The notes under the pieces are model-generated. The model was not told the origin of the DNA, did not search any database, and worked only from the letters and a program-made list of their open reading frames with translations. A stretch of 63,824 nucleotides of DNA, counting the filler, from Nemertoderma westbladi (taxonomy: Eukaryota > Animalia > Xenacoelomorpha), in the NCBI GenBank assembly GCA_032718475.1. It is 4 parts of 4 records of this genome, joined end to end, with 100 filler letters (N's around TTAATTAATTAA, not from the genome) between each part and the next. Parts side by side here need not be neighbours in the genome. Positions count along the whole stretch, not along the records: positions 1 to 23,010 come from JAUCBJ010005994.1; 3 more parts are not named here. One strand, written 5' to 3'. Shown here one piece after another: positions 4,575-56,159 of this stretch (positions are counted from its first letter, which is position 1; each line of letters opens with the position of its first letter). Made by a program: the position numbers and the translations under genes.

Positions 4575-5515
4575 TGCCATTAGTGCCCACGGGCACTAAT
4601 GTTTCAGTACCTTTAGTGTCCGCGGTCACTTAGTCGCATTATCGCGGGCACTAATGTCCCATAGGACGTTAGTGCCCGCGAGACGTTAGTGTCTGCGAGA
4701 CATTAGTGTCTGCGAGACATTAGTGTCCGCGAGACATTAGTGCTCGCCTAGCGACTTAGTTAGTATATGTAATAAATACAACAGGACAGGAAGACATTTC
4801 CCGCTTCTTTATTTCCTGCTGATGCAAACGAGTCGTTACTTTCTTCAAACTCCAAAGGTACAAATTTCAGTATTTAGTTTCCGCATCTCGTTATTTAACA
4901 TTTTAATTTCAACTTGGATCTTTTATGATTAAAAAATTTATTAACCTCAGCTAGACATGGTAGCATTTATATTATTTGGTTTTGCGGTAAAGTCTTCAAG
5001 GAATGAGGATTAAGCAACGGCGTTTGATTGTTTACAAATAACTGAATAACCTAGTTTTGATTGAGTATACTTCATTTGTTTAACTTTCCTGGAGACAGTG
5101 CGTGTAATACAAAAAACAAGATGCAGTACAATCGTCCGAGGACGCACTAACTAATATATTATAATGAATTAATGATTTCAAGAAAAATACACAGTCGACT
5201 GTCTGACATTTTGTCGACGAATTAATTAGTTAATTAAATTAGGGAATGAATTAAATTAGTTTATGTTAATGGAGGAGGCCGTTGTCGATGATATGTCATG
5301 ATGACATGATTATGTCGGTATAAGTAAGTAAGAAGAAAAACTGATTGCCTTATACTAACTTCCAAATTCAGTGCGGGGTGCGGGCACTAATGACTCGCGG
5401 GCACTAACGTCTCACTTGCAGACAAGGTCCTCGGGCACTATTGACTCGCGGGCACTAAAGTCCTGAGACATTAGTGCCCGCGGGCACTAACGTCTCGCGG
5501 GCACTAACGTCCCCC
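4575..5515. mobile_element. Foldback/MITE-like element with arrays of a ~17-18 bp motif (gagacattagtgcccgc) in inverted orientation at both ends
   Basis: Motif repeated at 4575-4750, mostly inverted (gcgggcactaacgtctc) at 5380-5512, with an AT-rich non-coding middle. Confidence 0.7.
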
Positions 5516-8500
5516 AATCCCTGATATAATGCTGTGGTTTGCAGTGTTGCAACATCACTGTGATCACGATCATAGTGCGTTGAGTTTTAGTGTAATGAAT
5601 CAACCTTTATGTGATTTTCTGTGAGTAGAAGTTGTTCGAGTTTTATCTATGTCAGCTTCACGGTTAGGGAAAAGTATCAAAGCAGTAACGATCGAACATT
5701 CGAACGGCAACGATCCCCCAAAATTAAAAAAAAAACGGAGTGATACAAAATAGTGAAGAAATCGTGGATCGGGATATGGTTACATTAATTAGAGGGAAAT
5801 TCCGGTATCTTATCATATTTTTTATCAGCAGCAACCATCAATAAAATAATACCCAGGAATTCACCAACAGTTATAGAATTAGCATTAGGTAGGCCTTCTT
5901 TCTGTACTTCAGGCGTTCAAGGGAAATGCCAATGGTAGTTTGTTTGGGCAGAAATGGGTTAGTAACAATTTAATTGGATTGGGAATGATAAGATTATATT
6001 TAGGATAATCGAAGCCGATAATAACAGCTGGATATTGTTGGCTGGACTTGCAATGTTTGGTATTTGGTTCCAGACGCCAGACGTGAAACACCGGGGAAGC
6101 AAAAATACCCTTCCTGGTCACCACATTAGTTTATTTACATAAATCTGAAAGTATAAGACAAAGAAAAATAATCAAACGGGTATCCCGTCGTGGCAGAATC
6201 AATGGCGACACATGTGATTTCCCTCTGTTTAAATAATAACAAGATATACAAGGAGCTGTGTAGGCTAAATATGGGAAGCTAACAAATTGACATGGTACAC
6301 TTGCACAGGATATTGTTTCATATCGCCAGAATTATGGGCATATTTAACAAACCACCTGCCACCCATCCTGTTAACATCTCATTTGGTCAGCTGATTTATA
6401 GACACAATTCTGCAATTATTACGTTCACTCTCAATTTTACTAAACTTTTTGCTGATCAGATCACACATACAGTGTGGGTGGATGAAGGGGCTTGTTAAAC
6501 AAATCACAATGGCATAGTTGTTTTTTAAATATGTATATTTGAAAACAAATTAGATTAGCCAAATTATTGTAAAAAAGGTAAAAGGCGCGGGCGTATAAAA
6601 TAATTTTTTTACAATTCTTTACATTGTTAAACTTAAAGTGATCAGCAATTGGTCAAACAATATTCCGACATTCGATATTGATGGACTTTATAGGGAGGCT
6701 ACGCCAGAGCAGTCAGCGCCGTCCATAAAGAACATATTAAAGTTTACATGGAACAGTCATATGCTTGTGTGGAAATATGGGCCCCCTGGCCGTTGCATGC
6801 CGCCCATCTGTTAGCACCATAAAGCGCTCACATTGATCGATATGTATAGTATAAGTGATGTTATATGTACTGGTATGCTATTGATTTGATATTATATATG
6901 ATGTTCGTTATTGGGACATAAAGTTATAAAGTTCTCAAATCATTATTGTCCTCACAATATCCATAAAAATGTAATCGATATGAAAATAATTTCGCATTTT
7001 AACAATTAGGTGCAAAATAGTCAGACAAATTCCGTTTCGAAAATACTTTGCCTAACGAAAGTATATGGGGCATCGTATCGATGGAGGAGTGCCCGAGAAT
7101 CGCCTTAAAAGTGCACTCCGATCCATTACATGTAATCGTTTGGTTATATACATATTGATTCAATTCGAAGCATCTCTATAAGCAACTCCTATATGCTTGT
7201 TGGCGCAATACAATTTAGAAGGACACATTTACACATGTGTTGAAGGCAAAACGACGGGATTACCAACTTGAATATAATTAAATGTAGCCCAGTGGAGCCC
7301 CGATTGTAAAGTTTGCAGATGTAACTGTTGGCCCGGGTGTGTGATCCAGGTTTATGGAACACAGCACCTCGGGCCTCATTAGCGGAGCAAAACGCAGGTG
7401 ATTAGCGCCCGGTTGGATAGATTCATCAGTAAGAACTCCAAGAACGGCAAGACACCAGACTTGTAGACAAATAGTTTACACGTGTCGCAACACAAATTAT
7501 AGGACTAAATGAGATGTTTCGGAGGGCTTTGGTGATTATTGTCCGATGTTCCGTCAGGAATGTCGTCTGTTTGATGCGTCTTTGATTGGGTGACCCAAAA
7601 GTTTGCGTTCTACAAATGAGTGAATATGTATGTCAATAAATCTGGATTCATCAACCCTGTTATCTAACAATTGTTATTTAGGGGATATGGGGGGGGGGGG
7701 GGGGGGGGGGGGTACGAAGCGAACCCTTACATTTTTCTATATGCCATAATCGTAACGTTATCATTGTTGTATAACGCGGAATTATGCAATTGCTAAAGAT
7801 GTGGTCAGTCCAGACCTTTGGTGTGAACTAAACCTGCACGGCCCTTTTACATATTTACATGATTGGCAAAACTCCGTGAAGTTTATTATCCACTTATGTG
7901 AGCCCTAATTGAGAAAAATATCCTTGTAAAGAGGACAGGCAACTGAAGAAAGCACAAAAAAGGCATGTGGACTCAAGGCCTGGATTCAGTGCTGCGACAC
8001 AGTAGTTATTGCCTCTGGCACCCAATGTGCGAGTCTGTTGTTATTGCACCTTCGGTTGTCATGAACAATGCTAATGTACACAATAATGGCTGAAGGCTAC
8101 ATGTCGGTAGCAATGTTCAGTTACATGGGCTATCAGTTGTTCTTAGAGCCCGCAAACACTTGCAGCGTTTGTGCTTGTCTGTGCAACCAGGCCTTCTGAC
8201 ACGGTTGTTACCGGGACCCGGAGCACCTTCACTTGTACTATGGGCGCCTAACAAGGGGACCATAGGTAAACCAGCATGTAAATCACTTTGTTAGGCTGCC
8301 TGAGTGGTCACTTCCTTAAAAGCAGTGTTGTGTAGTTGCTTGTTATTTATGGTAGGTAGAGCCCAATGGAGGTATAGCCACTTAATACCCCCCCCCCCCC
8401 CCCCCCCCCCTCTCGCACACAGCCACAGCCGCCCCTGTACCCATTGTATTTCGGAGCCCCCTTTCCGAGGATTATACCGGATACGCTTGAATGGGAATCC

Positions 8501-9353: not shown

Positions 9354-10077
9354 ATGTCATACTCAGACCGAAATTCATTGACCAATCAGCTGACGGGGAT
9401 GCCAGGCAACGGATTCACTGGCTCCCGATTGGGCACCCACACTCCGTCCGCAATGGACCTGCAGCCGCCCTACTTCCCGCCGCCGTTCGCCGCAGCCCAG
9501 CAGGCGGCCGCCGCCTCCATGGAGTTCCACCACCACGCCACCGCCACCGACCCGTACTTCCAGTCGCTACACAACGCCGGTGGCTACGCCGCCCACGCCG
9601 CAGCCCATTTCCAACAACGCCACGCCGCGCACCACGCGTCCACGGCCAACACAACCCCGGTTCACGATCCCCTCCATCACATGTACTCGACGATGCATCA
9701 GCACCAGTTCCAACCGCGCACCGCGGACGCCTACAGCGCCTTCCGTCGTCCGGACATGGTCCCGATGTCGGCAGACACCGAGTCCGCTCTCTGGGCCGGT
9801 CTCCACAACATCAACATGCCGGGGGAGGTGAACGACGCCTACGGACTGGTTGACCACAACGTCATGCGGAAGGTGGCCACCATGCGGACAAAGACGGAAC
9901 TGGATATTAGTCACAAGGAGCACATGTTGGGGAGCGCGTTGGTTAGCCCCATGGATGTGTTCTGTTCGGTCCCCGGGCGATTGTCTCTGTTGAGTTCAAC
10001 CAGTAAATATAAAGTGACGGTTGCCGAGGTTCAACGACGTTTAGGACCTCCGGAATGTCTCAACGCTTCGCTACTCG
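9354..10077 (+). CDS. TFAP2: Transcription factor AP-2, first coding exon (PY activation motif and start of the basic domain)
   Basis: [10 protein letters not shown] motif; [41 protein letters not shown] is the AP-2 signature; phase-1 donor G|GTTAGT at 10077/10078. Confidence 0.95.
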
Positions 10078-10364
10078 GTTAGTATAGCTAAGGATATTAC
10101 AGCTAGTTATATATAATATAGAGGAATGTAGTGTTCGGGGCAGAATTGATAACTCCAGGATGATAGCTGCGGAAAATTTCGTGCCCGAAAAATTAGAAGA
10201 GAGGGGAGCTATTGAAGCAAAGTTGAAGGGAAAATTACAGGGGAAACAAACGCAAGTTATAGCCGATACTGGGAAAAATGAAACTTTAGCCTGTATTGAC
10301 TTTGGTTTATTATTTTGGTTAAAATATTTTTTAGAATATTTTATTATCATGGATCAGAAAGTCA

Positions 10365-10950
10365 GGTGAAAACCTTCGGATACGTAAGGGGAAGGCATGG
10401 GCAGTGTTAAATAGTCTGTCCGGTCCAGGATTTGGAAGTCCCATAGAATAAAACGGAACCTTAAGGTGCTATTATTTATGGCAGCAGTAGTACCAGTACT
10501 CATATATGGGAGTCCATGCTAGGCTCTAACTGCAGAGGGTACCAAATCTCTGGATGGCAATTTCACAAGAATGCTGCACCGGGTTCATTGTGTCAAGTAC
10601 AATGAACACATCTCCAATCAGACTCTATACAACATTGGAAGTGTTCCATTAGTCTCCCATAGCTTGGCACTTGAACGGAACCGCCTCCGCTTTGCAGGAC
10701 ATTGCTTTCGCCGTGAGGACCAGCCAGTGCATAATCTTGTGCTTTGGTGGCCTCATGGAGTGAGTAAGCATGGTGGACAGCCCATGACTTTCTTGAGACG
10801 CATCTTAAAGGACACTGGCCTTGAAGATGCGGATGATCTAGCAAATGTCATGGGTGATAGGGAGTTGTGGCGGCGCAATTTTGTCGACAGCCGGCACAGA
10901 ATTTTTAATATATATGTAATATATAATGCAGCTGCAATGTAGCATGCCGA
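10365..10950 (+). mobile_element. 5'-truncated, degenerate RTE-like LINE copy inside the TFAP2 intron
   Basis: Near-identical to 26790-27355 (RLRFAGHCFRREDQPVHNLVLW...DRELWRRNFVD); in-frame stop upstream. Confidence 0.85.
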
Positions 10951-13900
10951 AAGGTATACATTTTCATGATCATATAATAACATGATAATATTGAAGAAAG
11001 TAGAATAACGTTTTATTTTAAAGGGAATTTAGCTTATTTATGACAACGACAGTTTGTAAATATCTTTGTCAAATGGTTCCCCGATAATATATGTAACTTA
11101 TGTCTCTGGTCTGTTATTCATATCAGTATGTTCATTTGAAATCTACTGTATTAAATGAGTTTATTGCACCTGAGGTTATAGTCGATAGTATATAGGGTGG
11201 ATGCCATTAATCATATCGTCCATAAATAATCTGCCGCCCATAAAGATTGAGGTATCCACTTGACGACAGGATTGGATCGAATTCTAACATTTTGGGTGAT
11301 TTCCTGTCCCCAGTGCCCATTGCTTTCGTATCTGGCGCACATAAACTGGCTTCTCCAATGAGATATTTCACAATGAGATTCAAGATTAGCATCCTGTAAT
11401 TAAATATCAGCTCTCTATTGTCACTTGCATGATTTTATACGAAGTACTAACTAACCACTATGATTTAATTAGCATAAGGTATGGTAAAAACCATAAATTA
11501 AAAAAAAAGAAAAAATCCATCAAAATGTTCGTATGTTGCTATTTCGTTAATAGTATATTTTTTTCAATATTTTGTTGAACTAGGACAAAATGTTTAGCTG
11601 AAGTAGCGCAAACTTTAAATTAAACATTTTTGGTGTCCTGTTTGCCCAATATGTAATCTAGCAAACATTATGCAGATCCAGATGCTCACCCTCCTTGTAT
11701 ATTGTCTATTCTTCGACTGGGCTTAACTATAGGACTGCGACAAACAAAAATATAGGGCATATTTCCTTTCGACCTTGACCAACACACGCACGTGGTGTCG
11801 TGTATCACTGACTCCGCACTGCACAGTTCATCTACCGCGTTGATCCAGTTGAGAGTTGATCCAAGGAACAAGGGATCCGCTCTCGTGAAGAGGACTCATT
11901 ACCGTAAATGACAATGCAACCTGACACCGATTGCAATCTCCCTACTTCTCCGACGTTAGCTACACTATTACGAATTATATATAATAATCCCCGGTAGTTT
12001 CTAAATATAGACAGAAAGTACGAACGAACAGAACATTAGTTATTTTATAATTAGCCATTGAGTCCACTGACTGTGTATTTGTATCTTTGATTACTAAGTT
12101 AACCTTTAACCACAAAATCACAACAAATTGTGATAGAGAATACGCGCGATGGTATTTTTTACAAGAATTGTGAGTTATTTTTGAAATTAAAAACAGAATG
12201 CATTAATTATCATCTAAATCCCTTAAACCGCGCACTCTCAGCTTTTACGAAGGGGTCGTCCATCGTAGTATAATTAGTAGGCAGCATTCACCTGTCAGTG
12301 GGAGTGTTAGATAACGTGTTTGAGTGGTTTACGGGGAGCTCAGCTCCCAACAGGGTGTACCACAGAAGGGCCATTCCTATCTGCCCGGGCCACTCGTCTC
12401 CTGGCCTATCACAAACTCCCCGCTGAGGAATACCTTTTGTTACCAACTTTGGATTCAAAGTCTCTGCTATATGTGGATCGATGGTAGATAAAATCTTGCG
12501 GTCCGTATATTGTCGCATAGAGATTGCGTCACAAGGCTCGCCCATACGATATATAGCTTGAACAACACCTTGCATCAAGCTGTAACAATATCAATCTACA
12601 TTCCCCCCTACTCTGTGTAAATACTTGTTATTGAGTTATACCTGGTGGCGTGGGTGACACCGCGTTCTACAAATATTTGTATTTTAGGTCCGTCGATATT
12701 TCACACGCTTTGAAATATTTTTCTCATTCTGCTTTTATTGGATTGGTAGATTCATGGTATTTGTATTGGCAAATCGTTTAAACACTCAGGACTTACAACA
12801 CATGTGTGATAGTGGGCTCGCCTTCATCTCTTTCACTATAGTTTCACGTTTACACAATGATGCTCTTCCTCCAGATCTTTAGCTCGAGTATCGTTTTCAG
12901 TTTTGAAATATGGTGAATAATACATTCGAGAAAACACAGCCAGGGCGACAATAAGGTAGGTGAAGCGTCGCCCTCCCAAAGGACGAAGTCTCAGAGTTAT
13001 GCGAATAGGAATATTAAGTAACTCAGAATACGACATAGCCCATAATTTAAACTTAACTTTAGATCAAACAACACTATCCTATACGTGATACATGGGCTTG
13101 AAGCAAACAATTGGATGTATATTTATATAAAACTTATCGTGCTTATTGTGCTTATCTTTCTAATTCCAAATGAACGTACCTTTGCATGTTACTGAGTCTG
13201 TTACAGTTGTTGTAGGACATCGTGAAGCACAGGCTGCAACATTTACGATAGGCCAGAAGTGCTATTTCGACGCCCTCCCTACCCGCGTCAAAATAGTCCA
13301 TTTGGGAAACTGTAGTGGGGCTAATTGCCGGAGCTTACCAAAGGGCCTAGGGGACTGGTCTATTCACACCCGACTCCCAGACAAAGAAGGTCTCCCTACA
13401 GGGGCCCCAATTAACCGTGCTACCCAGAAATCATATCAATAGCCAGGTATGCTTCTTGTCATACATTGACACTGTGATTGTATAGTTGCAGAGTCGGCCC
13501 TTTTCGTCGTTCTGGGGCCCATACAAGATCACTGCATAATATATAATCACAGAATTCCAAGTCGGTTGACAATGAATAGCAAAGCCGGTTTCCAGCCTGC
13601 AATGGCGTCTTATATTACTAATTCAAACTCTCACTTCCGTTTCGGTTGGGATTAAACACAGCCATAATTCTAATGTATTTTTTTTGTTTGGATGTAATGG
13701 ACGGATTGACACTCTCGCGCCATGTAGAAGCTACATAGCGATGGTTTTAGCGGGTTTGGTGTACCTAGCCTGGAGCGCATCCTCAGTGAAACTGCTTCGG
13801 AATATCGGATTAGGTGATCGACAACAATGGTATAGTTATAATATTTTCTAAAAGGACTAAAATAAACATGGGATGCCAAAAGAATGCATGTATATAAGGC

Positions 13901-15111
13901 AATGATTTCTAAGTTGATATCGCAGATTTGGATATAGGTTTTTTCGCATCGATTCAACGAATTATCATTAGGTAAAGTTTGCGCGTTGAAATCCGTACAA
14001 CCGACATTAGTTTGCTCGGGAACGGGATTATTTCATGCCTCATTTCCCGCCCGATGTGGTGCCGGGGCTTCTGATTTGGAAAGTTAGATGGGTGTCACGA
14101 CAAGTTAATTGCGACAGCCAACTCCTTGATTACAGAGGCAGTTCGTGGATGAGTGGGCTGGTTTAAGGGCCTTATTTACCATTGCACTAAGGTCACCCTC
14201 ATGCACAATTATTAGAGTGTATTATTACAATCAGAGGACATTTACAATTTTTAATCAAGTGCTCCAAACCATTACCCAGCATCCCCGGTACAATTCGCGT
14301 TCTCTAGGTGAGTTTGCAATTGGAATTTTATAGTTTTCGTATCCCTTGAAGGGCATCGTTTGAGTATATAATTTGTATTCGAAAGCATTGGCAGTATAAT
14401 TGCGCGGGTGGATACGTTCGAAAGCAAGATTGGCGCTGAAATAATGGCCACAATAAATTTAACTTTCTGTTCGACTGTTTAATTTAATATATATGGCTAA
14501 TCTATTTGATAAAATGATGAATGATAAGTCGTGAAAGAAAAATAAATAAATTACTCCCTTGAAAACGTCTTTGTTTTGTAGTCACCCTAACATTACCAGC
14601 TATGGTAGATAGTAATAAATATTCGCTGATGATGACTTCTGCGTTTTGTGGCCCCAGATATGTTACTATGTATCCCTAAACTTCCAGAATATTTTGTGTT
14701 CTGTTTAGAACATTTATCACAAATAAAGCAATCGAGATGAAAGAATAGATGATTAATAATCTTATATTTGGGATTCAAATTACATAGATTTTAATAGTTT
14801 TTTTGCCGGTGTATAATAGAATATATTATTCTTCCATATTGAGGTTTCTTTAAAAGGCAGAATATATTTCACTGTTGCAATCCTATAGTATAGCTCACAT
14901 AGACAGGACTTTCCGCACAATAGTGGCACAAACAGATCGAATGCTGGTGCACTAGTCTTCAGGAAAAACGTGATCATTAATCACGCGTTCGATACATGTT
15001 GTTTTGAAAATTTTCCACTACCAGGACTGGTTAGCGTCGATACTACCTTACAGGCTCAAGCGAAATTTAAATGGCGGTTGCAGGAAAACAAATATAATTT
15101 ATATCTCAAAA

Positions 15112-15578
15112 GGAAAGATTACAGCTTTATTTAACTTCCCGGAGTCTGGGGTAGGAAAGATTACAGCTTTATTTAACTTCACGGCGTCTGGGGTAGGAAA
15201 GATTACAGCTTTATTTAACTTCACGGAGTCTGGGGTAGGAGAGATTACAGCTTTATTTATCTTCCCGGAGTCTGGGGTAGGAAAGATTACAGCTTTATTT
15301 AACTTCCCGGAGTCTGGGGTAGGAAAGATTACAGCTTTATTTAACTTCCCGGAGTCTGGGGTAGGAAAGATTACAGCTTTATTTAACTTCACGGCGTCTG
15401 GGGTAGGAAAGATTACAGCTTTATTTAACTTCACGGCGTCTGGGGTAGGAAAGATTACAGCTTTATTTAACTTCACAGAGTCTGGGGTAGGAAAGATTAC
15501 AGCTTTATTTATCTTCACGGCGTCTGGGGTAGGAAAGATTACAACTTTATTTAATTTCCCGGAGTCTGGGGTAGGAAG
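15112..15578. repeat. 42-bp minisatellite, 11 copies (ggaaagattacagctttatttaacttcccggagtctggggta)
   Basis: Exact 42-nt periodicity, few substitutions, no spacers. Confidence 0.95.
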
Positions 15579-16479
15579 GAATTATTGTGAACAATGACCC
15601 GGTAAGCAAAGCCACATTTATGCCAATGTGGATTGTCAAGGTGCGTCATTTGTCTCATTAAGCGTACCCCCCCTGTCACAGATAGGACATTCAAGTCACT
15701 TTGCTTGTGTGTTAGTTAGCTTTATTTAACTGCTATACAGCCTAACTTTGGTAAAATAAATTAGTTAAATATTAATTAATTATATTGTATCTATTACTAT
15801 AACAAAGAAGCAGATTCTGGTTCAGTTTCACCTTCTGAAATGAAATAGAAGGCGAACAGAACAGTATCACCCTCAGTGAACTGCTTCAAAACATACCTGC
15901 CCCACGTGTCTCACATTTTGACACCTTATAACCATTAAAAACGAAACTGTTGCTTGTAGTAACAGAATTAATAAGAACATTCACATTCGGCACATTTATA
16001 TCACTGCGCTAATATTGCTGGTTTCTCTATATTATTATTCCGCTAAAGTTACGGTCATTAAGTCAGAATAAACCCTATAAACCCAAATATGGTTATTGAC
16101 ATTCATTAAATTATTATTCTGGCGCCTTTTACACGCTATATTATCGTATACCCTATACACGCGTATATACATCCTGTACACTAACATTAAAACATTAAAA
16201 ATTACATTAACACACTCGGTTGACCTCGCTATAGCTACCCCTTTGGCTATATCAACAAGAACAATTGAAACCAGTTATGGCAGTCTTTGTGGGGTCAAAT
16301 TATAAGTGTCTAACCCCCAGAGGTGCCAGGGTGGTAGACTCCCATTGCGGTAACAATAGCGGCCCCCAACTGAGAACAACGTACCCTGTCATTAAAGTAT
16401 TAGCTTGGTTACCCAATACTCAGGGCCTCTCTAGGCCAAAATCCTGTACCCTGCCTGCCTGTGTACTGTGTGTGCGTCC

Positions 16480-16920
16480 GAGCTTGTCAACCCATCCATC
16501 ACTATTGTCTTCGAACATGTTGGCGGCAGTGTAGACCGCTTTGTTCAACATTTTGTCCCCATTGTCGAAAACCATGGAGGTACAGACACCGAGGTGCTAC
16601 ACTCATGCCCGGTGTATGCCGACAATCCGTAATGCTGGCCCCATCATTCCGGGCGCGGGTTACCAGTCCCATCCGAACCGACAAACAAGTACACATAAAC
16701 CTCGCAATCACTCAACTAGCCCCGTATTAATTTTTTCCTATGTCTATGACGCGGCCCTTCTGCGGGCTATGGAGTCGCGTCGCTCACCATTCTTGGCCCC
16801 CGATCGCATTCGCTCAGAGTCTTCCTGACGGGCCTCCAGACATGGGGCCTATTCACAAGGGGTGGCTACAAGTCTGTCCCACTTACATCCATGCTATAAC
16901 AACCCGCCTCAGGGTTTTAC
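16480..16920 (+). pseudogene. Possible decayed DIRS/Ngaro-type tyrosine recombinase fragment
   Basis: Frameshifted pieces MLAAV*TALFNIL, RTDKQVHINLA, SHSLRV and PTYIH lie in the order expected for a YR; the resemblance is weak. Confidence 0.25.
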
Positions 16921-18203
16921 GGTTGGTTACCTGCGACCTATAGATAGATTGTCATGTACTTAGAGCTTCTTGCATTGATAAATATCTCTCTCTTTCTACA
17001 CGACTCTTGAATGCTGAACAATGTGAGAGCTTATCACAGAGTAACGTAGACGACCAACTGTCTTTCTCCTGCCCTAAGGCCCTTTTGAAAGTCTGAAGGC
17101 ACTGGTTTTTATAAAGCCGGCGCGTCGTGAATCTCTTATAGTTCCAGGTAAACTGCTAGTCGCCGTCTTACCATAGTGAACAACAAGTAGAAGATGTTAA
17201 TTAATATTATCATCATCTTGTTAACAACATGTTATTTATAATGATTCCCTTCCCAATGAAGGTCGACCGAAAACGTCCGTAATCTCAAAATACTAAGTAG
17301 AATTTAATTATTTTTTGTCATTAAGTGGCGGGTGTGTTATCCACTCATTGGCACGTAACACATACCTTTCCATTGCCCGCATTTCAACGGTTGTGTATTT
17401 TTTTTTACAATTCAAATCCTATTCACAACTGACGAGATGATTTGGCATTAATAACATTCCATTTAGGTGTCCAGTTAGAATGCCAGTGATACGATTAATA
17501 AGGAAGTCTGATTTTGAAAGTTTTATAAAGAGCGGCGTTGAAATTTGATGTATATTCTAATATGTAACATGGATTTATTTTGTAATCTTCTCTGCGTGGG
17601 CCCTATCCACCGCGTTTCCAAGTGCATTCTTTCTGCTTATTAGCTGAGGTATAACGGCTTTTAAGCCTCGCCAAATCGATAAACACGGCTTGGTAATATT
17701 GATCGTACGAAAGAACTGCGATTAAAAGAAACTTTGCGATAATCAAGAGTATCGATCAAAACTCAAAACGTTTCAGCTTCTGTGGGAATTGGATCTGTGG
17801 AACTTGGCGGATCTAGGCGGATCTAACGCTAAGTAAAAGCAAAATAAACTACCCCAATGTGGATGTACCAGAGTGGCGACTAGCCACTTCATACCATATC
17901 ACGCCTCCGCGCACGTGACCATTTTATGGAGTAGCAATAGCACCCAGTCCCATTTTTATTTGCAAAGACAATTGGCACATATTGTAATTTTCAAAAATCG
18001 TAGCAAATCAAAGATTCAAGGGGGTAACGCAAATCCCATCACGGCGGCTTAATTTATCTTCTAAATATTAAATTATTAATTAAGGGAAAGTAGAAAGGAG
18101 GCGATGTAAACCATTGTTACGGGGTTGGGGTGTTACATTGTATATATTAACTGGAATATATATAAACTAAATATTAACTAAACCACACGTTACTCTTTTA
18201 CAG

Positions 18204-18808
18204 GAGGTGTTTTGAGACGAGCCAAATCGAAAAACGGCGGCCGATTATTGCGAGAAAAACTCGAGAAGATTGGTCTGAATCTGCCGGCGGGCCGCCGCAA
18301 AGCCGCCCAGGTGACTCTACTGACGGCGCTAGTCGAGGGGGAGGCTTTACATCTCGCCAGGGACTTTAGTTACGTCTGCGAAACCGAATTCCCATCCAAA
18401 GCTATAGGCGACCACGTTGCCAGGCAACACAGCGAACCTGCCGAGCAAATGCAGCGTAAGAGTATGGCCCTGGCGGCGAAACAAGTCCTCAAGGAATTTG
18501 GTGACCTCCTGAGTCAGGACCGGTCCCCAATCGGAAACACGAGACCCAACGGGATACTAGACCCCGCTATGCAGCGGGCTCTCACTCACTTCAGTCTGAT
18601 CACCCACGGTTTCGGAACGCCGTCCCTTCTCGCTGCAGTCACCGCCATACAAAGTTACTTAACTGAAATGCTCAAATCCCAGGAGAAACTATATATGAAC
18701 AGTTCCCATGGCACCGCCCCAACAAACCGGCACTCTGGTGATACAGACTCTCGGAGTGTCCACTCCAACGGTAGTTCTGACTCATGTAAAGAAAATATTT
18801 CCTCATAG
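18204..18808 (+). CDS. TFAP2: Transcription factor AP-2, last coding exon (basic region and helix-span-helix); total protein 442 aa
   Basis: [34 protein letters not shown]...[20 protein letters not shown]...[12 protein letters not shown]; TAG stop; AATAAA at ~19030. Confidence 0.97.
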
Positions 18809-23010: not shown

Positions 23011-23110
23011 NNNNNNNNNNNNNNNNNNNNNNNNNNNNNNNNNNNNNNNNNNNNTTAATTAATTAANNNNNNNNNNNNNNNNNNNNNNNNNNNNNNNNNN
23101 NNNNNNNNNN
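23011..23110. other. Artificial contig spacer (N44-TTAATTAATTAA-N44)
   Basis: Identical 100-nt spacer recurs at 42521-42620 and 57487-57586. Confidence 0.95.
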
Positions 23111-25386: not shown

Positions 25387-27370
25387 TATTGAAGGTAACA
25401 CAGAACCATTCGAAGTATTATGGGGAGTCCTCCAGAGAGACACACTTGCGCCATTCTTGTTCATAATTGTGGTTGACTATGTTCTACGCATGTCCTTAGA
25501 TCATCATTTTCATTTCATTCATTTCATCATCCGGAATTTTTCGCCCCGGCGGCTTTAATTTACATAAATAAAATACATAATACATAAAATAACGAGTAAA
25601 ATCAAAGTGCAGTGAACAATAACAAGGGAGTGTGGTGCAATATGACACATGACAAATATGACAAATAATATTGTTGAAATTGTAAGATTAAAATATTTAA
25701 ACAATAGTAAGTACAGTTGTGGAGATTATTGATTTTATTGCACACAAGATAAAGCATCGGTATATCAAAATACGATCCTATAATATAAGCTAAGCCCCAG
25801 TTCGATGGTTCTTAGATCAACTAAAGGTTTCGTTCGGGTTTTAATTTAATTTAATTTAATTTCGTACATAGAAAATAAATCTAGTACAGCATACATACAG
25901 GACCAACAAAGCACACGATATATAGTGAATGATGTTAATAATGATGCACAGGGTAAATTAGTTACTGTAAATATGTGTACAAACCGAACACCTAACTGAT
26001 TTGAAATTAGTATCTGTAAACTATTATAACTAAACCTAACAAAGAGCTAACAGTATGAATAAACAAAATGAACAACAATAAACAAGTCAATTCGTGGAAA
26101 TATAATTGAGAATGTCATCCAATTCAGATCTATCAAAACCAGGAATAAAAGTTTCTGCGCCAATTTGTAAAAATCCAGTAGTACAGCATGCTTCGCTACG
26201 AAGTTTCCAATGGGACAGTTGAGTAAGCTCCTAACATATAATACGGCATATTGTTCTTTAGGGGTCCTGGTACAGAAATTATCTTTAACACCCTGCTTTA
26301 TACATTTAATGCTGTACCGACTAGTCGATAGTGAGGTGATGGATGGTAGTCCCAGCTCCCATGCAGCCATGTTGTAAGTTGCAAATACTGGACATTCATA
26401 GCTTCCAGACAGATGGTTGCACAGCAGATATGTTGTCAGGAATATTAGGAATGTCAGGAATATCATAATGATGATGGGGTGATGATAACTCCACCTACTG
26501 GCTCCAGAAGTCGAGGAAATCATGCCAAGTACCTAACTGATCTAGACTTTGCTGATGACTTAGGAGTACTCTCAGAATCACTAGTGGGAGCCCAACGGCT
26601 CCTCAGCTCATTAGAACATGCTGCTTCTAGTGTTGGTCTTAATATTAACTCCAAAAAGTCCAACATATTGACAGTTAACTTTGAAAGTCCTCAGCAAGTA
26701 TCTGACCGGATGAGCATAAGCTCAAAGGATGGTATGCTTGAGCATGTGGACGACTTCTGTTACCTGGGATCATGGATCCGGAGGTCAGGTGAGGACCTTC
26801 GAATACGTAAGGGAAAGGCATGCGCAGCCTTGAATAGGCTTTCAAGGATTTGGAAGTCACATAGAATTAATCGGAAAATTAAGGTCCGATTATTTAGAGC
26901 AGCAGTAGTTCCAGTACTCCTCTATGGGAGTCTATGCTGGGCTCTAACTGCCGAGGACACCAAATCTCTGGATGGCACATTCACAAGAATGCTACGCCGG
27001 GTTCATTGTGTCAAGTACAATGCACACATCTCCAACCAGACACTATATAACATTGGAGGTGTCTCATTGGTTCCCCCAAGCTTGACACTAGAACAAAGCC
27101 GCCTCCGCTTTGCAGGACATTGCTTTCCCCGTGAGGACCAGCCAGTGCATAATCTTGTGCTTTGGCAGCCTCATGGAGTGAATGAGCATGGTGGACAGCC
27201 CATGACTTTCTTGAGACGCATCTTAAAGGACACTGGCCTTGAAGATGCGGATGATCTAGCAAATGTCATGGGTGATAGGGAGTTGTGGCGGCGCAATTTT
27301 GTCGACAAGCCGGCACAGCATTCTTAAAAATGCAGCTGCAATGCAGCATGCCGATACTAGTAGTAGTAGG
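25387..27370 (+). mobile_element. 5'-truncated RTE-like LINE with a (tag)n tail and 9-bp TSD tgatataaa, itself interrupted by an insertion
   Basis: RT motifs GVLQRDTLAPFLF (25420-25470) and LDFADD (ORF 26479-27327); TSD at 25378-25386 and 27371-27379. Confidence 0.85.
25505..26466 (-). mobile_element. ~960-bp insertion into the LINE RT, probably the 3' end of another non-LTR element
   Basis: Removal restores MSLDHNDDGVMITPP in frame; atcat duplicated at 25500-25504 and 26462-26466; (cattt)n tail at the left end. Confidence 0.65.
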
Positions 27371-29009: not shown

Positions 29010-29095
29010 GTTTTCTCCCGAGATTTCTCAATTAACGGAAAGGAGCAGGTTACAGTGGCGGGCTTTTCTAACCAAAACAATAAACGATAGCTCAA
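29010..29095 (+). mobile_element. Dispersed SINE-like repeat copy
   Basis: ggaaaggagcaggttacagtggcgggcttttctaaccaaaacaataaacg is the reverse complement of 3357-3410. Confidence 0.65.
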
Positions 29096-32564: not shown

Positions 32565-32745
32565 TCGTTTATTATTTTGTTTAGAATAACATGCCACTGT
32601 AACCTGCTCCTTTCCATAAATTGATAATTTAATATTGAGACAAAATAATAATTCGCCGGATGGGATTTGTGCCCCCCCCCCCCCCCCCCCCCCCTTCGAA
32701 CCTTCGTGTATAGTCTGATGTACCTTCCTGTTGCGTAACTAATAT
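32565..32745 (-). mobile_element. SINE-like copy with a degenerate tRNA-like head
   Basis: Minus strand has A-box-like tagttacgcaacagg and B-box-like ggcacaaatcc, then the shared ggaaaggagcaggttacag body. Confidence 0.5.
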
Positions 32746-32859
32746 CTTGGCAATCTTAGCAGTGCTAAGGAATATACTGTATAAACTGGGTCTGGGATGA
32801 TGGTGGGTTCTAAGTTTAGCTAACAGCCTAAGCTGCTAAGATATCTAAGTTCTCTTCGA

Positions 32860-33203
32860 ATATATATATATATAGGACCTACTGTGTACTGTGTACTGCT
32901 GTACTGTGTAAGTTGTATAGTGTTATATATATATATAGGACCTACTGTGTACTGTGTACTGCTGTACTGTGTAAGTTGTATAGTGTTATATATATATATA
33001 GGACCTACTGTGTACTGTGTACTGCTGTACTGTGTAAGTTGTATAGTGTTATATATATATATAGGACCTACTGTGTACTGTGTACTGCTGTACTGTGTAA
33101 GTTGTATAGTGTTATATATATATATAGGACCTACTGTGTACTGTGTACTGCTGTACTGTGACTGTGTAAGTTGTATAGTGTTATATATATATATATAGGA
33201 CCT
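32860..33203. repeat. 63-bp minisatellite, ~5 copies, ~250 bp upstream of the ERCC6 ATG
   Basis: ggacctactgtgtactgtgtactgctgtactgtgtaagttgtatagtgtt(at)n repeated. Confidence 0.95.
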
Positions 33204-33449
33204 GAAACGAGATCCTCTAAGTGAAATATATGTACATTATTACTGTATTAACTCGAATATGTTGCTCAGTTTTATAAATTATAAATCTTACCGCCCGCAC
33301 TGTGTACTGCTGTACTGCAGTACAGCAGTAGGCCTACTGTGTAAGTTCGCAAAGACAGAAAGATCTAAGTTTATCTTTCTTTACCGTTCAGATTATACAT
33401 TAGGCCTATACCCGTTAAACGGTAGCCTAACTATTAATTAAAACTAAAA

Positions 33450-34866
33450 ATGAGTACCGGTGATAATATGGAGGATTTGGAGGAATCAAAAGGAGCTGAT
33501 GATGATATAAATGAATTCGACGTCATGTGCAGATCTCAAGAGGCGGTAGAAGCTGAAATTATAGAGAAAATACAATCGGACTTCGATAAGAAAGATAAAA
33601 GTATACGCGATAAACAGCGAAAACGTAGAATTCTGGGCCTAAATTCAAAAATAAAGAAATTAAAACATAGTTTGGAATACAAACGGAACCTTCTGAATGA
33701 GCTAAGTAAGGGTTCAGTTTCCTCTGCGTTGTATACGTTCAGGAAATGGGAGCGGCTGGAAAGGGAATGCGGGCAATTACAAAGCGAGATCGATAGAAAA
33801 GAGAGTGAGAAGTTGGAGCCGGATGTTTCTTGCGTCGACGTGTTAAATTTCGACGCCCCTAATGAAACAGAGCAGGAACGATTGATTAGAATAGGGGAAA
33901 TAAATCCGTTCGAATTAGCGGATACTGGGGAACCTCTTGTCGGTTGTAGTCGCGTGGAGGGAACCGGTACCGATAGGAACGGAACCGGTAGGCCTACCGA
34001 TAGGAACGGAACCGTTACCGATAGGAACGAAACCGGTAGGCCTACCGATAGGAACGGAACCGGCACCGGCACAACCACCAGCGACGAGGAGGCTGCCGAT
34101 CCCTCCTACCAATATTCCTCGGATGACAGCGGAAAGTTAGTCGAGGATTTTGGAAGCGCCGAAGTAAAGTGGGAGTTTAAGAAGGGAGTTTATAAATCAC
34201 AATGCGAGGCGGCGGCGAGGAAAAAAGTAAAGCGAACGAAAGCCGCGGCGAGGAAGGCGTTGGATAAATCGAAACGAATTCCTAATAAACTCCGGAAGGA
34301 CTCGGTTGTTGACGACTGGAACGAGACGCAATACCGGAAGCGACAACGCGAGTACCAGTTGGATAGGTTGTTATACGAGGGAGAGAATGGGTTGGAACCG
34401 GTGGAGGGAGGGTTGAGGGTGCCGTTGGGAGTGTGGAGGAGGTTGTACGAGTACCAACGGAGCGCCGTGAGGTGGTTGTTTCGGTTGGACAGACAGGGGG
34501 TCGGCGGGGTGCTGGGCGACGAGATGGGGTTGGGGAAGACGGTGGAGGTGGTTGGGTTCCTGGCGGGGTTGGCATCGAGCGGGTTGGGTCCCGGCGGCTC
34601 GGCGGACGGCCCCGGCGGCTCGGTGGACAGTCCCGGCTACCGGGGTCTCGGTCCCGTGTTGGTCGTGGCCCCCACCACCGTGCTGCACCAGTGGGTGCGG
34701 GAGTTCCACCGCTGGTGGCCACCGTTTCGGGTTGCCATCCTACACGATTGCGGTTCCTACGTCGGGGACAAACGGAAGCTGATTCGCGAGACATTCCGGA
34801 AGCGCGGGGTTCTTGTGACGTCATACACGACGCTAAGGATAAACGCGGCTGTTATACTCGCTTTGG
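33450..34866 (+). CDS. ERCC6: ERCC6/CSB SNF2-family ATPase, exon 1
   Basis: ETEQERLIRIGEINPF (CSB N-terminal motif), LYEYQ, GGVLGDEMGLGKT, PTTVLHQWVREFHRWWPPFRVAILH; phase-1 donor G|GTCCGT. Confidence 0.93.
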
Positions 34867-35498
34867 GTCCGTCTAAACACCCCAAATAATCACAAAATAA
34901 TGGAATCAGGGAGCAGCAGACCCACATAAAGGGCCGACACCAGTGCAGTAAATCCATGTAAACAAAATATGGACCCTTAAAAATACTTGTTCTAGAACAA
35001 AACTCATTTTATAAGTAAATAACTAACAACATATTCTAGAACATTTCTCAAAGTATAGCTGGATTAATAATTATTTGATTAATAATTAATAGTCTAAATA
35101 GAATTATTACCTTTTTGTAAATTCTCCTTAGACTAGTCTTATATTCAATATAATCTTATCCTCGATTTAATAGAACCGATTTAATTAAATCGATAGCAGT
35201 TTAAATAAAAGGTTATAATCCCTGCTGCCCATTGACCTGTGATAAAAAAACCTATCGATGTTCAAACAATATTTTTTTCAAATTGCATTTATTGACCATT
35301 CATAACAAACACTACGTTATACTTTATATATAAAAATGTTATTGTTAAACAAAATAATAATTTTATACATTAATATTCTAGAACACGTTTTTCGCTCCGT
35401 TCCTAAACCCAACCCAATTCGAAGTGGTTAAAATATTTTGGATCCCTCCAGCGTTGTGTGTTATTGGGGGTGTTTACCCGGACCTCCCCTCCCCCCAG
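34867..35498 (+). other. ERCC6 intron (632 bp) with weak donor GTCCGT and complementary ends
   Basis: G+AC restores ILAL-DWHYAILDEGH in frame; acceptor ctcccctccccccAG. Confidence 0.85.
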
Positions 35499-37900
35499 AC
35501 TGGCATTACGCTATCCTAGACGAGGGCCACTGTATACGCAACCCGGAGGCGGCTATAACCCGAGTCTGTAAACGCCTGCGGACCCCCCACAGACTGATAC
35601 TGTCCGGCTCCCCGCTACAGAACAACCTCCGGGAACTCTGGTCCCTAATAGACTTCGTCTACCCCGGTAAACTCTCCTCCCTCTCTGTGTTTATGGAGCA
35701 GTTCTCCGTGCCCATCCTACAGGGGGGCTACGCGAACGCCTCGCCGCTGCAGGTTCGCACGGCCTACACGTGCGCCTGCGTTCTACGGGACACCATTAAA
35801 CCCTACCTACTGCGTAGACTAAAGGCCGACCTCGGTGGCTCGCTAAATCTACCCAATAAGAAGGAACACATATTGTTCTGTAAACTCTCACAACAACAAG
35901 TTCATTTATACCGCGATTATTTATCTTCTAAGGAAGTTTCTTCTATACTTAGTGGCTCTCTCCAGGTTTTTACCGGTCTTATAAAGCTCCGTAAGATTTG
36001 CAACCATCCGGATTTAGTCGGAGTTGTTTCGAAGGATGAAACCTTCGGCGCTGTTAGTAAATCTGGTAAGTTAACCGTCGTGGAGTCCTTGTTAAAGATG
36101 TGGAAACGCCAGGGGCATAAGGTGCTTGTGTTCTCGCAGAGTCGGCAGATGTTGGACATATTGGAGTTGTTGGTTGTCGCGTTGGGGTTTAATTACAGTC
36201 GGATGGACGGGACCACGGGGGTTAGGAGTAGGCAGACGCTGATAGCGGGGTTCAACGGGGATCCGGATAAGTTCGTGTTTCTGTTGACGACGCGTGTCGG
36301 CGGGCTGGGGGTTAATCTAACGGGGGCGGATCGCGTGGTCCTGTACGACCCGGATTGGAATCCAAGCACCGACGTGCAGGCGAGGGAACGGGCCTGGCGG
36401 ATCGGGCAGACTCGTGACGTCACCATCTACAGACTGGTGACCACGGGCACCATCGAGGAGAAGATCTACCATCGGCAAATCTTCAAGCAGTTCCTCGCGA
36501 ACCGGATCCTTAAGGATCCGAGGCAACGGAGGTTCTTTAAGTCCAACGATTTGTTCGAGTTGTTCTCCTTCCTCCCGGAGGACGACGGACGGACGGACAC
36601 CCAGACTGCCGCCATATTCGCCGGAACCGGCGCCAATATTACCCAGAAATCCGTCGCTAAAAGAACTCAATACAAAACGCCGAAGGTCGCGAAGCAACAG
36701 AGTAAACAAACAGGAGTAAATGAACCGGAAGTTGCCGTTTCAGATGGCGCTGCAGGGCCGTCCGGTAAAGGGGATGAATTCACGGCGTTATTAAAAAGTT
36801 GGGGTTTGTCGAATAATTCCAGCTCCAAAACAATCAGTCAACTACAGAGCAAATACACCCCTATGAGTAAACCAAGAACTCATAGTAAAGTCAAGGTAGA
36901 CGGGGAAGCCATTGATAATGTTGTTCGTAAATCCGTTTATAAAACCGCTAAGAGTGAATCTTCTGTTACGAATGAGGACGATTACGTGTTGGGTAAGTTA
37001 TTCCGGGGCTCCGGGGTACATTCCGCCCTGCAACACGATACCATAATGGACTGCTCGAGGGCGGACTATAAACTAGTTGAGTTAGAGGCGGAGAAGGTGG
37101 CCAGCAATGCGGTGGAAGCCCTGAAACGGAACCGGTGGGAGATACACCGAGATTCGGTTGCTAAACCGAAAGTACCCCGGTTCGGTCAGAGTAAGAGCTT
37201 CTTATTGAGCAGCTCAACTGTGTTAAACAACATCAGAAAACCAGAAGAAACATCGTCTACGTTTAAGAGATCCAAAACTCTTCCTGTTACTGACAGTGAT
37301 GATATTCGTGATACATTTTTTAGTTTCGATCAACCGTCCAGGAATGAGTCGGTACTTAGAACGACAGTGAAGTCGCCATCGAAAGCGCCTTTATCATCCG
37401 CCTTAACATCATCATCCAGAACTTATACAGCTTCGCCATCGATGTCTTCCACGCAATCACATTCAAACTCCTCAAACTCAAACACACCGTTTGTTATTCC
37501 AACCTCGCCAACGAGCTCTTCAGTTTCTTCTAACACGCCTTCCAGCTCTTCACCCTCCTCTGTCACGCCTTCCAGCTCTTCACCCTCCTCTGTCACGCCT
37601 TCCAGCTCTTCGGCGTCATCATCCGCGCTGTTGCAACGCATCCGGGCGAGGAACTCATTAACCGTTCCGGTTGATGGCCTAGTGGAACACGCGGATTTAG
37701 TGAAGGACGTCAGGGACTTCGTTTGTACCGGCGCTGCGACATTCGGGTTCGCTTCCACGGCGGAGGTTATTGATCAATTCAAACATCGGGTTGTCGCAGG
37801 CAATAACGAGGTCTTCAAACACATACTGAAGGAGTTGTGTTTTATGGAAAGGACCTCGGATGGACAGGGGATTTGGATTTTGAAACCAGAGTTTAAGTAA
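35499..37900 (+). CDS. ERCC6: ERCC6/CSB exon 2; total protein ~1272 aa
   Basis: LDEGH, SGSPLQNNLRELWSL, LRKICNHP, TTRVGGLGVNLTGA, QARERAWRIGQ, KDPRQRRFFKSNDL, SSALLQRIRARN, C-terminal GIWILKPEF; AATAAA at ~38109. Confidence 0.97.
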
Positions 37901-40727
37901 AAATTATATTTAATAATGTGAGGAAAATGTTGTAGCACATAATTCCAAATGATAGAATTCCCCGTGGGTTGTTTGTTTGTTAACTGTTTCATTTACCAGT
38001 TCACTGACCGTTTCTTTGGCTGTTTTACCGACTAGGTCATTGACCGTGACCTTTATTACTACATTGGCCGTTTCATATGTCTATTTTTTCTTAGAGTTAA
38101 GCTAATTTAATAAATACAATTCAATTTATTTATAATTAGAGTTAAATATACTCTAATGACGGGAAATTATGTGTTAGGGAATTCTATCGTGCAATGCAAC
38201 TTTGCTACCGATAGTTTTATACTTATTGCAATAATGAATAAGTTTATTTCACAATGCCATTATTGTGTTGTAAATTTTACATTTAGATTCGCAGTGAAAT
38301 AATGCAATTTTACCATTAAATATTAATAATGATTCCTAGGATTCTTAACTGCCGATGTTTTCAAATTGAATTGAATTAGGGGAACTCGACGTCGACAGCG
38401 TGATGCAAATCCCATCTCGGCGAATAATATATCTCACAAAAACTCACATCAATGTTAAATTATCAATTCAGGGAAAGAAGAAGGTTGCAGTGGTGTGTTA
38501 TTCTAAAAAAACTAATATAGAACAGGTTGCAATTTTATTTTTGGGAGTATTCAGCTGTTATCAGTGTTCCTCTCCTCCTACTATTAAGTAGTCCGTTATT
38601 CCTTCTCTTTGTATACCACGTCATGGACAATATAAAATATACCATGGGACACATTCGTGGGGCCTTCGCGCGAGACGAAATATGCAAAATACCAAGAGAG
38701 AAAAATAATCAAAGAAATGGCAGAGGAGTCGCGTTTTTGGGTGGAAATTGTCATTCCGAGAAAATTGCCTTAAAACAAACTTCCCCGCGCAAAACTGCCC
38801 GATGGTCTGTCAATAATGTGTGTAACTAAGCAAGAACACCACCTAGCTAAAATTATTTTGACGTAGAGAGCGATAACTCGAGAACTAACTAAAAGAGATC
38901 TCGCTACGCCGTTTTCAGATTTGGAATCCTCATTAAATTCTGATCCTGGAGAAATAACAAAATAAATATCCGAAATTTTGACAAGAAGGGTAGAACCCCC
39001 CCCCCCCCCCCCCCCCCCCGCCTCAGTAAGATATTCCTAGAAAAACCGGTCTTCGTACTGCAAACAAACCCTTAGTTTGACGGGGTTGTTCATTCAAACA
39101 TATTATGTTGGGCACATAATGACCAATAGAGTTCTTAAGAACAATGTCACCCAAATCTTAGAATATATGCCATCGTTAAGTGTAGTAGTGAATATTGTTG
39201 AATATCTTATCACTTTTTACCAATATCCTCTGCTATTTCCACTTGCTGTGCCTTTCTAGTCCCGTATTTTACATCCCGTTGTTTAAACATCAATTATGTC
39301 ACAATGTGCAGTTTATTCACCAAAGAAAATACATTTCCGTGAGTTAAATTAGCTTTTTTATATAATAAAGTTATTGTAAAATATGAATAAACTCAGTATT
39401 ATACTTATATTAGGTAAATAAATAGGCGATGGAAATTTAACAAAGCAGCAAAACAATTACAATTAGCAAAAAATAATAAGCTGACAAATTAATGGGTGAC
39501 TGCGCGTCGCCTAGACAGATTTACAATAAAAGTAATAAAAAATAACATTTAGTATGGCACAGTAACATGGATGGCAGGAAAGGGCGAATTGTGCGAAACT
39601 TACATAATATATGCTAAAAATATTAACGGAGGTATATACATTCAAATGGCACAGATATTATTATGAATTTATATTATTTCAACACAATAATTAATAACGA
39701 TTAAGAATTATAATAATAATCTGGATGAAAGTTTAAAGATATCTTAAATAAAGACGGTACAAAGGCACTGTCAATCATATTGTAATAAAATATTAATTAC
39801 ACATTGATGCAATAGCCGCCTTATTGTTTCTTTTTATAAGTTCTTCAGGTATTTTTCAAATTTCATCCAAATAACACATTCAATATATATACAACAAAAC
39901 TTCGCGCTGCACGTGAAGTCTGGTACAGATACGGCCTGCTAAGCATGGCCGTCTGTATTTTATAAAATTCGCTATGCTAATATTATTTTACCAATGGAAA
40001 CATTTATTTTAGTTCCAACACGAATGGATATTAGTAGAAATCTATAAGTACAAAAAATAAATAAATAAAATCAATTCAAACCATTGCGAAACAATCAAAT
40101 AATAATATTGTAATTTGATTGATGCGGAATTATAATATTACAAATAAAGTTTGGCACCAATATCTATATCGGAGTTTAGCGAAAGGACAGCGACGTATAA
40201 CTTACTTCATAGAATCGAGAAACAACACGTATTTGATACAACAAAATCGAACATTATCAGTTCCAGAATAACCGAATAGAGAAAATTCTACTTGGAGAGT
40301 TTATCTCACATAATTTATCAACAACAACGGCAGTGAACGCCGAATACCTCCTATTGGGCCTGCCTAAAGATCTCACAAACTTAAAAAACAACAAGAATTT
40401 AATTTAAATCTAATAAGACATTTTGTACACGTACGATATTATGTCCTAGCAGTTTTATTTAACAGGACAATTTGTACAGCTGTCACATTTCCGGGTATTT
40501 AATCCGTACACCTCACTCACTGTGTCGTCTTTTAGATTTTTTAAACTATTAAAATTATATTTTAAATAAAAATGTTTATTATTTTATAAACTGTATCTTT
40601 AGATGGCCATTAAATAACTGCTGAATACGAACATGTGCTTTGTATGTGAGTGAAACGGTTTCACTGTTAGACTATTAGGGGACAGCGCTATTTCCACTGA
40701 TTGCCTATGAAACATTTTATATAACCA

Positions 40728-41366: not shown

Positions 41367-42620
41367 CTGAAAAAGATAAATAATGTTATAGTAATAGTAA
41401 CACAGCATATAGTTAACGGTGTTTCTATCGAGTTATACACTGTTGTTTAGAAACAACTCTTAGATGGATATTTATTTTCATTTTCTTTACATCTTTTAAT
41501 ATAATATAGGCTAATTAATTATATTATAATTAATAAATTACACGGAATATTGTCATAATTCAGTGACATGGATTCCCCACCACCCCATTAAAATTTTTTC
41601 TAGAAATCTTAATGAGATTAAGAATTTATTAAATAAATATACCATATTATTCTGGAACACTATATTTATCTTGTACTATGTAAGAAAGGTAGACACTTCT
41701 CTCAAACGGTCTTAAAGATTGAGAACGAAAATAAAAATATAGGAGGGAGGTGAAAATATGTTTCAAATTTATTTCGATAATAAGATTTGTAAACAATTAT
41801 GGTTGGGGGGGGGGGGGGGGGGGGGGTTATATTCCATGATATCATGTAATTTAATAATTTAAATTATAAGTATAAATCTACCATAATTAGGAATTATTTT
41901 ATTTCAGCATTGTGGTCGATTACGCAAAAAGTGGCCAAAATTGTGTCAGACGTAATTTCGCCATACTATGAGCCATAACTCAGCAGAAAATAACCCAAAC
42001 CATATAAACTATATATATTTCTATAGAGCGAATTTTCGCCCATTTTTGGCATTGGTTTTAAGCAATTTGACATATATTTTCTTTGGATTACAAGCACGAA
42101 ATGGACATATGATGCAATGTCCGATGCTAAGTTTTTGAGATACAAACGATAATAACCAAATGTCAGTAAGAGATACTTCCAGTAAACTATATTATCAGCT
42201 AAAAGAAAAGCTTATTTTATGATCTACAATCCAACTGTACTAGTCGTTACTGGGGTACACTTCTTTATAGTTTTGTTTTTGGTAAAAAAAATCGACTTCC
42301 GTAGGGACAATGTTAAATCCGGATCCGCGTTTTACTCTGACCCCAAACGTTTGCCAAGTAGTTTTTTAACGTCATTGGAAATGTCCATCTTGTAACGCCC
42401 TTTTTTTTAGCTCTAACTTTTCTTCCACAAATCGGATTTACTTAATGTAAAGTTTATTTATACCGCTTCTGAAAGCGCTATCTAATGATATACAAGGTCA
42501 AGCTTTCATGTTAACCTAATNNNNNNNNNNNNNNNNNNNNNNNNNNNNNNNNNNNNNNNNNNNNTTAATTAATTAANNNNNNNNNNNNNNNNNNNNNNNN
42601 NNNNNNNNNNNNNNNNNNNN

Positions 42621-43304: not shown

Positions 43305-43469
43305 CTGTTTAGAGTATTTTTATATTTTAGAAACTGTGATTTTGTATATTTTATAGACTTAAATCCCATTTTCTGGGAGCGGTGTAAAAGCTTTTGTGGG
43401 ATAACTGATACGTTTGCCTTTGCTGGCCAGTTCCCCCCCGGTCGCTAGAAATACTCTCAAAGGGATTTA

Positions 43470-56005: not shown

Positions 56006-56159
56006 CTTATTAAATCAACTACAGAGTATTTTAATGTAAAAGATAATAAAAATAACGGGGCAATTCAGCAAAGGCTTTTACACCGCTCCCAGAAAATGGG
56101 ATTTTCAGTCTATAAAATATAAAAATCACAGTTTCTAAAACATAAAGATACTCTAAACA

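Follow-up and report, generated by a model that had tools for sequence, protein, structure and literature searches.

Introns that derive from transposons and have inverted ends are established in other lineages (PMC11282704, PMC9860276, PMC8469720). In a 2022 survey of 835 animal and land-plant genomes, introners were recorded in only two animal groups (PMC9860276), and a 2025 paper names a sea urchin and a tunicate as introner hosts (PMC12130899). The internally symmetrical (stw)introns of the Hypoxylaceae have a symmetry that decays with age and is dispensable for splicing (PMC8469720). The mean number of exons per gene in published acoelomorph genomes is 3.2-6.3 (PMC10565955). Here we describe two introns with inverted ends in a 63,824-nt stretch of DNA from the xenacoelomorph Nemertoderma westbladi (hereafter the window), which consists of four contigs joined by N linkers and in which all coordinates are counted. 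The window contains a TFAP2 gene and an ERCC6/CSB gene; each has one coding intron, and each of these introns lies at a new position compared with the related genes checked and carries an inverted repeat that starts at the donor and stops shortly before the acceptor. The two introns, which are all the introns found in the window, make up our sample. That both were gained from inverted-repeat mobile elements, with the TFAP2 repeat probably being a remnant and not a working RNA stem, is a reading on which we would place roughly even confidence, and the pattern across both introns is worth more than the TFAP2 stem itself.

The TFAP2 coding sequence is divided, on the plus strand, into exon 1 (9354-10077), which starts with the ATG, ends on a Gly codon's first base and covers positions 1-39 of the PF03299 profile, and exon 2 (18204-18808), which runs to the stop codon. 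The intron between them (10078-18203, 8126 nt, GT-AG, phase 1) falls at core codon 42, a non-ancestral position, and interrupts the Pfam AP-2 domain between profile positions 39 and 41; once it is removed, an open frame of 442 aa remains. In ERCC6, also on the plus strand, exon 1 (33450-34866) and exon 2 (35499-37900) are separated by a 632-nt intron (34867-35498, GT-AG, phase 1), and the joined frame comprises 1272 aa with 0 internal stops. Measured against the donor consensus, the donor matches at 8 of 11 positions in TFAP2 and is weak (6 of 11) in ERCC6. Both junctions are precise, with 0 residues gained or lost relative to six homologues each, and the intact, conserved frames suggest that both introns are spliced.

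The two introns have a common layout, in which an arm starting with GT is matched by an arm ending in AC, and a tail of 15-25 nt with the AG then follows outside the repeat. In TFAP2, the 5' arm (10078-10121) begins at donor +1, the 3' arm occupies 18133-18178, and the remaining 25 nt (18179-18203) have a pyrimidine-rich end with the acceptor AG last. In ERCC6, the 5' arm (34867-34904) likewise begins at donor +1, and the 3' arm (35447-35483) is followed by a 15-nt pyrimidine tail with the acceptor AG (35484-35498). The donor G+1 and U+2 face C and A at -26/-27 in TFAP2 and at -16/-17 in ERCC6, so that C18178 and C35483 stand opposite G+1. Branch-point-like motifs lie inside both 3' arms, namely the best one in TFAP2 (A18177, -27) and the sole one in the last 60 nt of the ERCC6 intron (A35476, -23). 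The full TFAP2 arms contain 32 Watson-Crick pairs in 43 aligned columns, with 4 G·U pairs, 7 mismatches and 4 gapped bases, and the ERCC6 arms contain 30 Watson-Crick pairs in 37 columns. Among the substitutions within the arms, G·U does not exceed A·C to any notable degree (4 vs 3 in TFAP2, 1 vs 1 plus 5 transversions in ERCC6, all small numbers), as expected of decaying DNA repeats. At the gathering threshold, Rfam gave 0 matches in the whole window.

The positions of the introns were compared with those in other animals. A metagenome scan yielded 80 TFAP2 loci, 34 of which had split matches (54 gaps), and a junction finder resolved 46 introns from them. Sixteen of these introns lie at core codon 47 phase 2, 10 at codon 87 phase 1 and 18 at codon 134 phase 2, with 2 doubtful. 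The TFAP2 gene of the window has none of these three common introns; conversely, 0 of the 46 resolved introns lie at core codon 42, and no orthologous intron was found at this position among the 80 fetched loci. One locus (L001) starts two bases before the position of the window's exon 2, and since it is an uninterrupted coding contig, it could not be read as a shared intron. The codon-47 introns of eight loci (L050, L061, L062, L066, L067, L068, L070 and L078) follow an exon ending in CCG and have mostly atypical donors (GTCTGT, GTTCGT, GTTTGT), with no terminal stem detected in them. In trees, the TFAP2 protein of the window is sister to those of the acoels Convolutriloba and Symsagittifera on a long branch, with Shimodaira-Hasegawa-like approximate likelihood ratio test (SH-aLRT) values of 94 and 92 in two quick trees of 48 and 24 rows; in pairwise scores, a marginally closer match comes from two hemichordates. 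Human ERCC6 has about 20 introns. The ERCC6 intron of the window lies two codons downstream of the Arg equivalent to human Arg637, as placed through the protein of one comparison species, the macaque, and thus inside human exon 9, which contains Arg637 and ends at c.1992 (PMC11925005). Because both introns lie at sites that are intron-free in the related genes checked, they are likely to be scars left by mobile DNA that makes introns.

A sequence-only reading of the window had described the TFAP2 intron as closed by a stem of three colinear blocks that spans a LINE (long interspersed nuclear element) copy and a minisatellite. The coordinates and letters of the blocks are exact, and the blocks pair at 8 of 8, 12 of 14 and 9 of 9 positions with one G·U each, three in total, although two mismatches in the 12-of-14 block went unmentioned. 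Both spanned repeats are present, as a LINE-like fragment on the plus strand (10346-10950, 86% identity to 26769-27354) and a 42-bp minisatellite of 11.1 copies (15111-15577). A short dispersed repeat family also occurs in both orientations in the window (18030-18093, 29025-29087, 32565-32669 and 38405-38517); its piece at 18030-18093, which has other copies at 32607-32669 and 38405-38482, lies just upstream of the TFAP2 3' arm by about 40 nt, outside the arm.

As an RNA duplex, the TFAP2 pairing is weak. Its energy of -18.2 kcal/mol is marginal against 1500 dinucleotide shuffles (p 0.054 and 0.038), and tiling of the intron and of the whole window gave equally good duplexes in 6.2% of 227 intron windows for the 5' arm, 1.1% of 364 for the 3' arm and 79 of the 904 window tiles. 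The expectation that the acceptor-proximal site would be the best partner does not hold on energy, as at least 12 intron sites reach -21 to -27 kcal/mol. Equal or better partners are indeed spread across the intron, since the net binding of -6.4 kcal/mol is equalled or bettered in 30 of 160 other intron windows. Self-folding is predicted for each arm (the hairpin of the 5' arm has -6.2 kcal/mol, z 0.08), and the predicted probability that +1 to +5 pair as proposed is at most 0.02. The pairing is therefore predicted to be too weak to form as an RNA stem, and what stands of the claimed closure is a donor-anchored inverted repeat that ends near the acceptor and exceeds chance by anchored alignment.

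This last result comes from a test in which the alignment was forced to begin at the donor G, under four scoring schemes. Position 18178 (-26) is the top partner of the 8.1-kb intron in all four schemes, and only 4, 2, 0 and 5 of about 2,020-2,050 31-nt blocks of the window score as well. The TFAP2 score was reached by none of 3000 local-composition shuffles (z 4.2) and none of 250 dinucleotide shuffles. Control introns were taken from the 46 resolved ones by leaving out 9 short and 2 doubtful introns (35 controls) and, for the anchored test, 3 more of at most 140 nt (32 controls); they include related species and are not independent. The anchored z of the 32 controls has a mean of 0.02 and a maximum of 2.6, compared with 4.2 for TFAP2 and 6.2 for ERCC6. 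The reciprocal test is weaker, with the true TFAP2 donor ranking 1, 1, 6 and 3 among 452 GTs of the intron and 9th to 33rd among 3715 GTs of the window.

The pairing in the ERCC6 intron is much stronger. Its end duplex has an energy of -41.9 kcal/mol (z -6.6), which was reached in 0 of 1500 shuffles and matched by no other of the 904 window tiles, and a pairing probability of 0.98-1.0 was predicted for the stem in all contexts examined. Relative to 20 shuffles, the fold of the whole intron has a z of -7.67, and the donor ranks first among 3712 GTs in 4 of 4 schemes. We also carried out a blind scan of 217 AGs preceded by pyrimidines over 35 nt with G·U excluded, which is stricter than the anchored test, and ERCC6 came second in it (score 40, level with its own mirror), followed by a score of 28.

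The preferred reading, a gain of both introns from inverted-repeat mobile elements, draws on the presence of the repeat in both introns of the window, on their new positions and precise junctions, on the missing G·U bias of the arms, on the established cases in other lineages and on the low predicted pairing of the TFAP2 stem. A number of observations weigh against it. No target-site duplication (TSD) was found: exon end and intron end have 1 nt in common in either gene, and tails and exon ends agree at no more than 6 of 25 (TFAP2) and 6 of 15 (ERCC6) positions; an origin of the tail by TSD was rejected, as the tails are unlike the exon ends. Between the two introns, the arms have no sequence in common, for which reason a common element family was rejected at the level of the window, and no second copy of either intron's arms or of the ERCC6 intron occurs in the 64 kb. 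A plain transposon end would not stop 15-25 nt short of the 3' splice site, as the repeat does, and a structural rule would account at least equally well for the same splice-site register in two unrelated sequences. Moreover, the blind scan missed TFAP2, whose acceptor found its best donor at 10305 instead of 10078; repeats near 32849-33104 score equally high (45) when matched to an unrelated AG; and the donor-anchored test was devised after both introns had been seen. The blind-scan miss, together with a TFAP2 duplex z of only -1.84 that 2 of 35 control introns surpass, also speaks for a second explanation, in which the TFAP2 pairing is a chance match of AT-rich, partly self-complementary sequences, aided by the complementarity of donor and branch-point motifs, and only ERCC6 is a true inverted-repeat insertion. 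The first block overlaps the branch-like motif and is unremarkable by itself (p 0.12-0.15, with an anchored helix of at least 8 bp in 2 of 35 controls), the reciprocal ranks of the true donor point the same way, and a very large scan preceded the selection of this finding. This explanation seems doubtful to us, since the site is the top one of the intron in every scheme, no shuffle reached its score, and the same geometry recurs in the independent ERCC6 intron, which the sequence-only reading had left unused, with both introns at new positions.

A functional alternative is that introns of this lineage are normally closed by an RNA stem between the donor and the branch region, which joins the ends and offsets weak donors, leaves only the pyrimidine tail and AG free, and includes TFAP2 as a weak, protein-assisted member. 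The equal register in two introns of unrelated sequence and very different length would suit such a rule, as would the combination of a weak ERCC6 donor with a stem predicted at near certainty, the lack of a TSD or repeat family in the window, and the persistence of the TFAP2 repeat beside a LINE fragment that is 14% diverged from another copy; end pairing is, moreover, used by the nonconventional introns of euglenids (PMC11282704). However, the TFAP2 stem loses to local hairpins, the arms have no G·U bias, three upstream AG-like sites have no convincing partner, and the rule would rest on n = 2 introns. The stems would also bury the donor and the branch-like motif, sites that conserved human pairings tend to avoid (PMC8052449). 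We consider stem-defined splicing of this kind unlikely. Its boldest form states that an early-branching bilaterian lost most of its ancestral introns and refilled its genes with GT-AG introns of any sequence or length, which are defined by a stem from the donor G to the branch region and by which the spliceosome pairs sites over up to 8 kb; we regard this, too, as unlikely. Under the preferred mobile-element origin, the ancestral introns would have been lost from both genes, and small elements carrying both splice sites would then have inserted. Splicing would be of the ordinary U2 type, the donor being recognised while the 3' arm is still untranscribed. The TFAP2 intron would later have grown to 8 kb through other repeats while its arms decayed, and it may be the older or more degraded of the two. 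The introns work like transposon-derived introns with terminal inverted repeats, the 3' arm being subterminal, and are no more than candidate members of an introner family.

The window has further features. Runs of N around a stop-codon linker lie at 23011-23110, 42521-42620 and 57487-57586, and adjacency across them is not real. A long, diverged, colinear inverted duplication (43142-44585 and 54832-56323), with 255 nt at 91% and about 700 nt at 70%, flanks about 10 kb of retroelement-like open reading frames (ORFs); its outer arm overlaps an ORF at 42624-43301 that has no Pfam match. Its two copies may represent the termini of a large inverted-repeat element. The top match of the blind scan (54863 to 44527) falls inside it and was rejected as an intron. 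A third gene lies on the minus strand, with a GC-rich ORF of about 147 aa (approximately 41258-40815) that has no Pfam family and no usable Atlas match; its basic-residue and serine motifs resemble kinase sites. For this gene, none of 16 candidate donors had a convincing donor-anchored partner among about 920-940 AGs downstream. In all three genes, a pyrimidine-preceded AG lies about 60-160 nt upstream of the ATG (9192 and 33391 on the plus strand, 41367 on the minus strand), which could be the acceptor of a 5' untranslated region intron or of trans-splicing. The best partners of these AGs score 37, 45 and 34, none is convincing, and no further intron can be claimed from them; the score of 45 for the AG at 33391 was judged a repeat effect, as the partner belongs to a 63-bp tandem repeat. 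A 17-bp unit forms two oppositely oriented arrays (4663-4747 and 5380-5525, about 630 nt apart) that resemble a foldback element.

That two conserved genes have each been cut down to one intron, which sits at a new site and has inverted-repeat ends, speaks for wholesale intron turnover in an animal lineage that matters for early bilaterian evolution. Old introns of this kind would escape searches that rely on similarity between copies, and the donor-anchored repeat is thus a usable signature for them. A functional stem would make these introns an animal example in which RNA structure pairs splice sites over canonical signals. A literature search that covered few subscription papers found no report of stem-ended introns in xenacoelomorphs, and the word acoel is absent from the main texts of two introner surveys, whose supplementary species lists, outside this check, may bear on it.

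Among the known systems, the introners of Micromonas, Symbiodinium, Acanthoeca and others are like the introns described here in their new positions, inverted-repeat ends and precise removal (PMC9860276, PMC12130899, PMC11282704). The absence of a TSD is shared with families described from Acanthoeca that have terminal inverted repeats (TIRs) without a TSD, which is not required in all families (PMC9860276). Introners are, however, defined as multi-copy families of similar introns, whereas no such family was shown here and the two introns have no common sequence; unlike introners, they also have a 3' arm that stops 15-25 nt before the AG, and one of them is 8.1 kb long. The noncanonical introns of Fritillaria borealis and the nonconventional introns of euglenids likewise combine lineage-specific positions with inverted-repeat ends, with Fritillaria being the animal precedent and euglenids the precedent for RNA stems that join intron ends (reviewed in PMC11282704). 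Their borders are noncanonical and they have a TSD or TSD-like repeats, and those of euglenids are without a pyrimidine tract (PMC11282704), whereas here the borders are GT-AG, the tail is pyrimidine-rich and a TSD is absent; an intron of the Fritillaria or euglenid type is ruled out by the GT-AG borders of both introns. Human pairs of conserved complementary regions (PCCRs; PMC8052449) and repeat-made stems in large introns (PMC2773006) also place complementary segments near intron ends and are proposed to unite splice sites, as could be the case here. PCCRs are defined by conservation and tend to keep clear of branch points and active splice sites (PMC8052449), whereas the pairing here covers the donor and the branch-like motif; such pairing is predicted to be thermodynamically favoured in ERCC6 but not in TFAP2. 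The (stw)introns of the Hypoxylaceae differ in being fungal, about 100-200 nt long and members of a family of similar sequences, and their donor G, branch A and acceptor G are often unpaired (PMC8469720), whereas the donor G+1 is predicted to be paired in both introns here. They have imperfect terminal inverted repeats of 45-55 nt with about 73% identity and are seamless, at new positions and without flanking duplication, as are the TFAP2 and ERCC6 introns of N. westbladi (PMC8469720).

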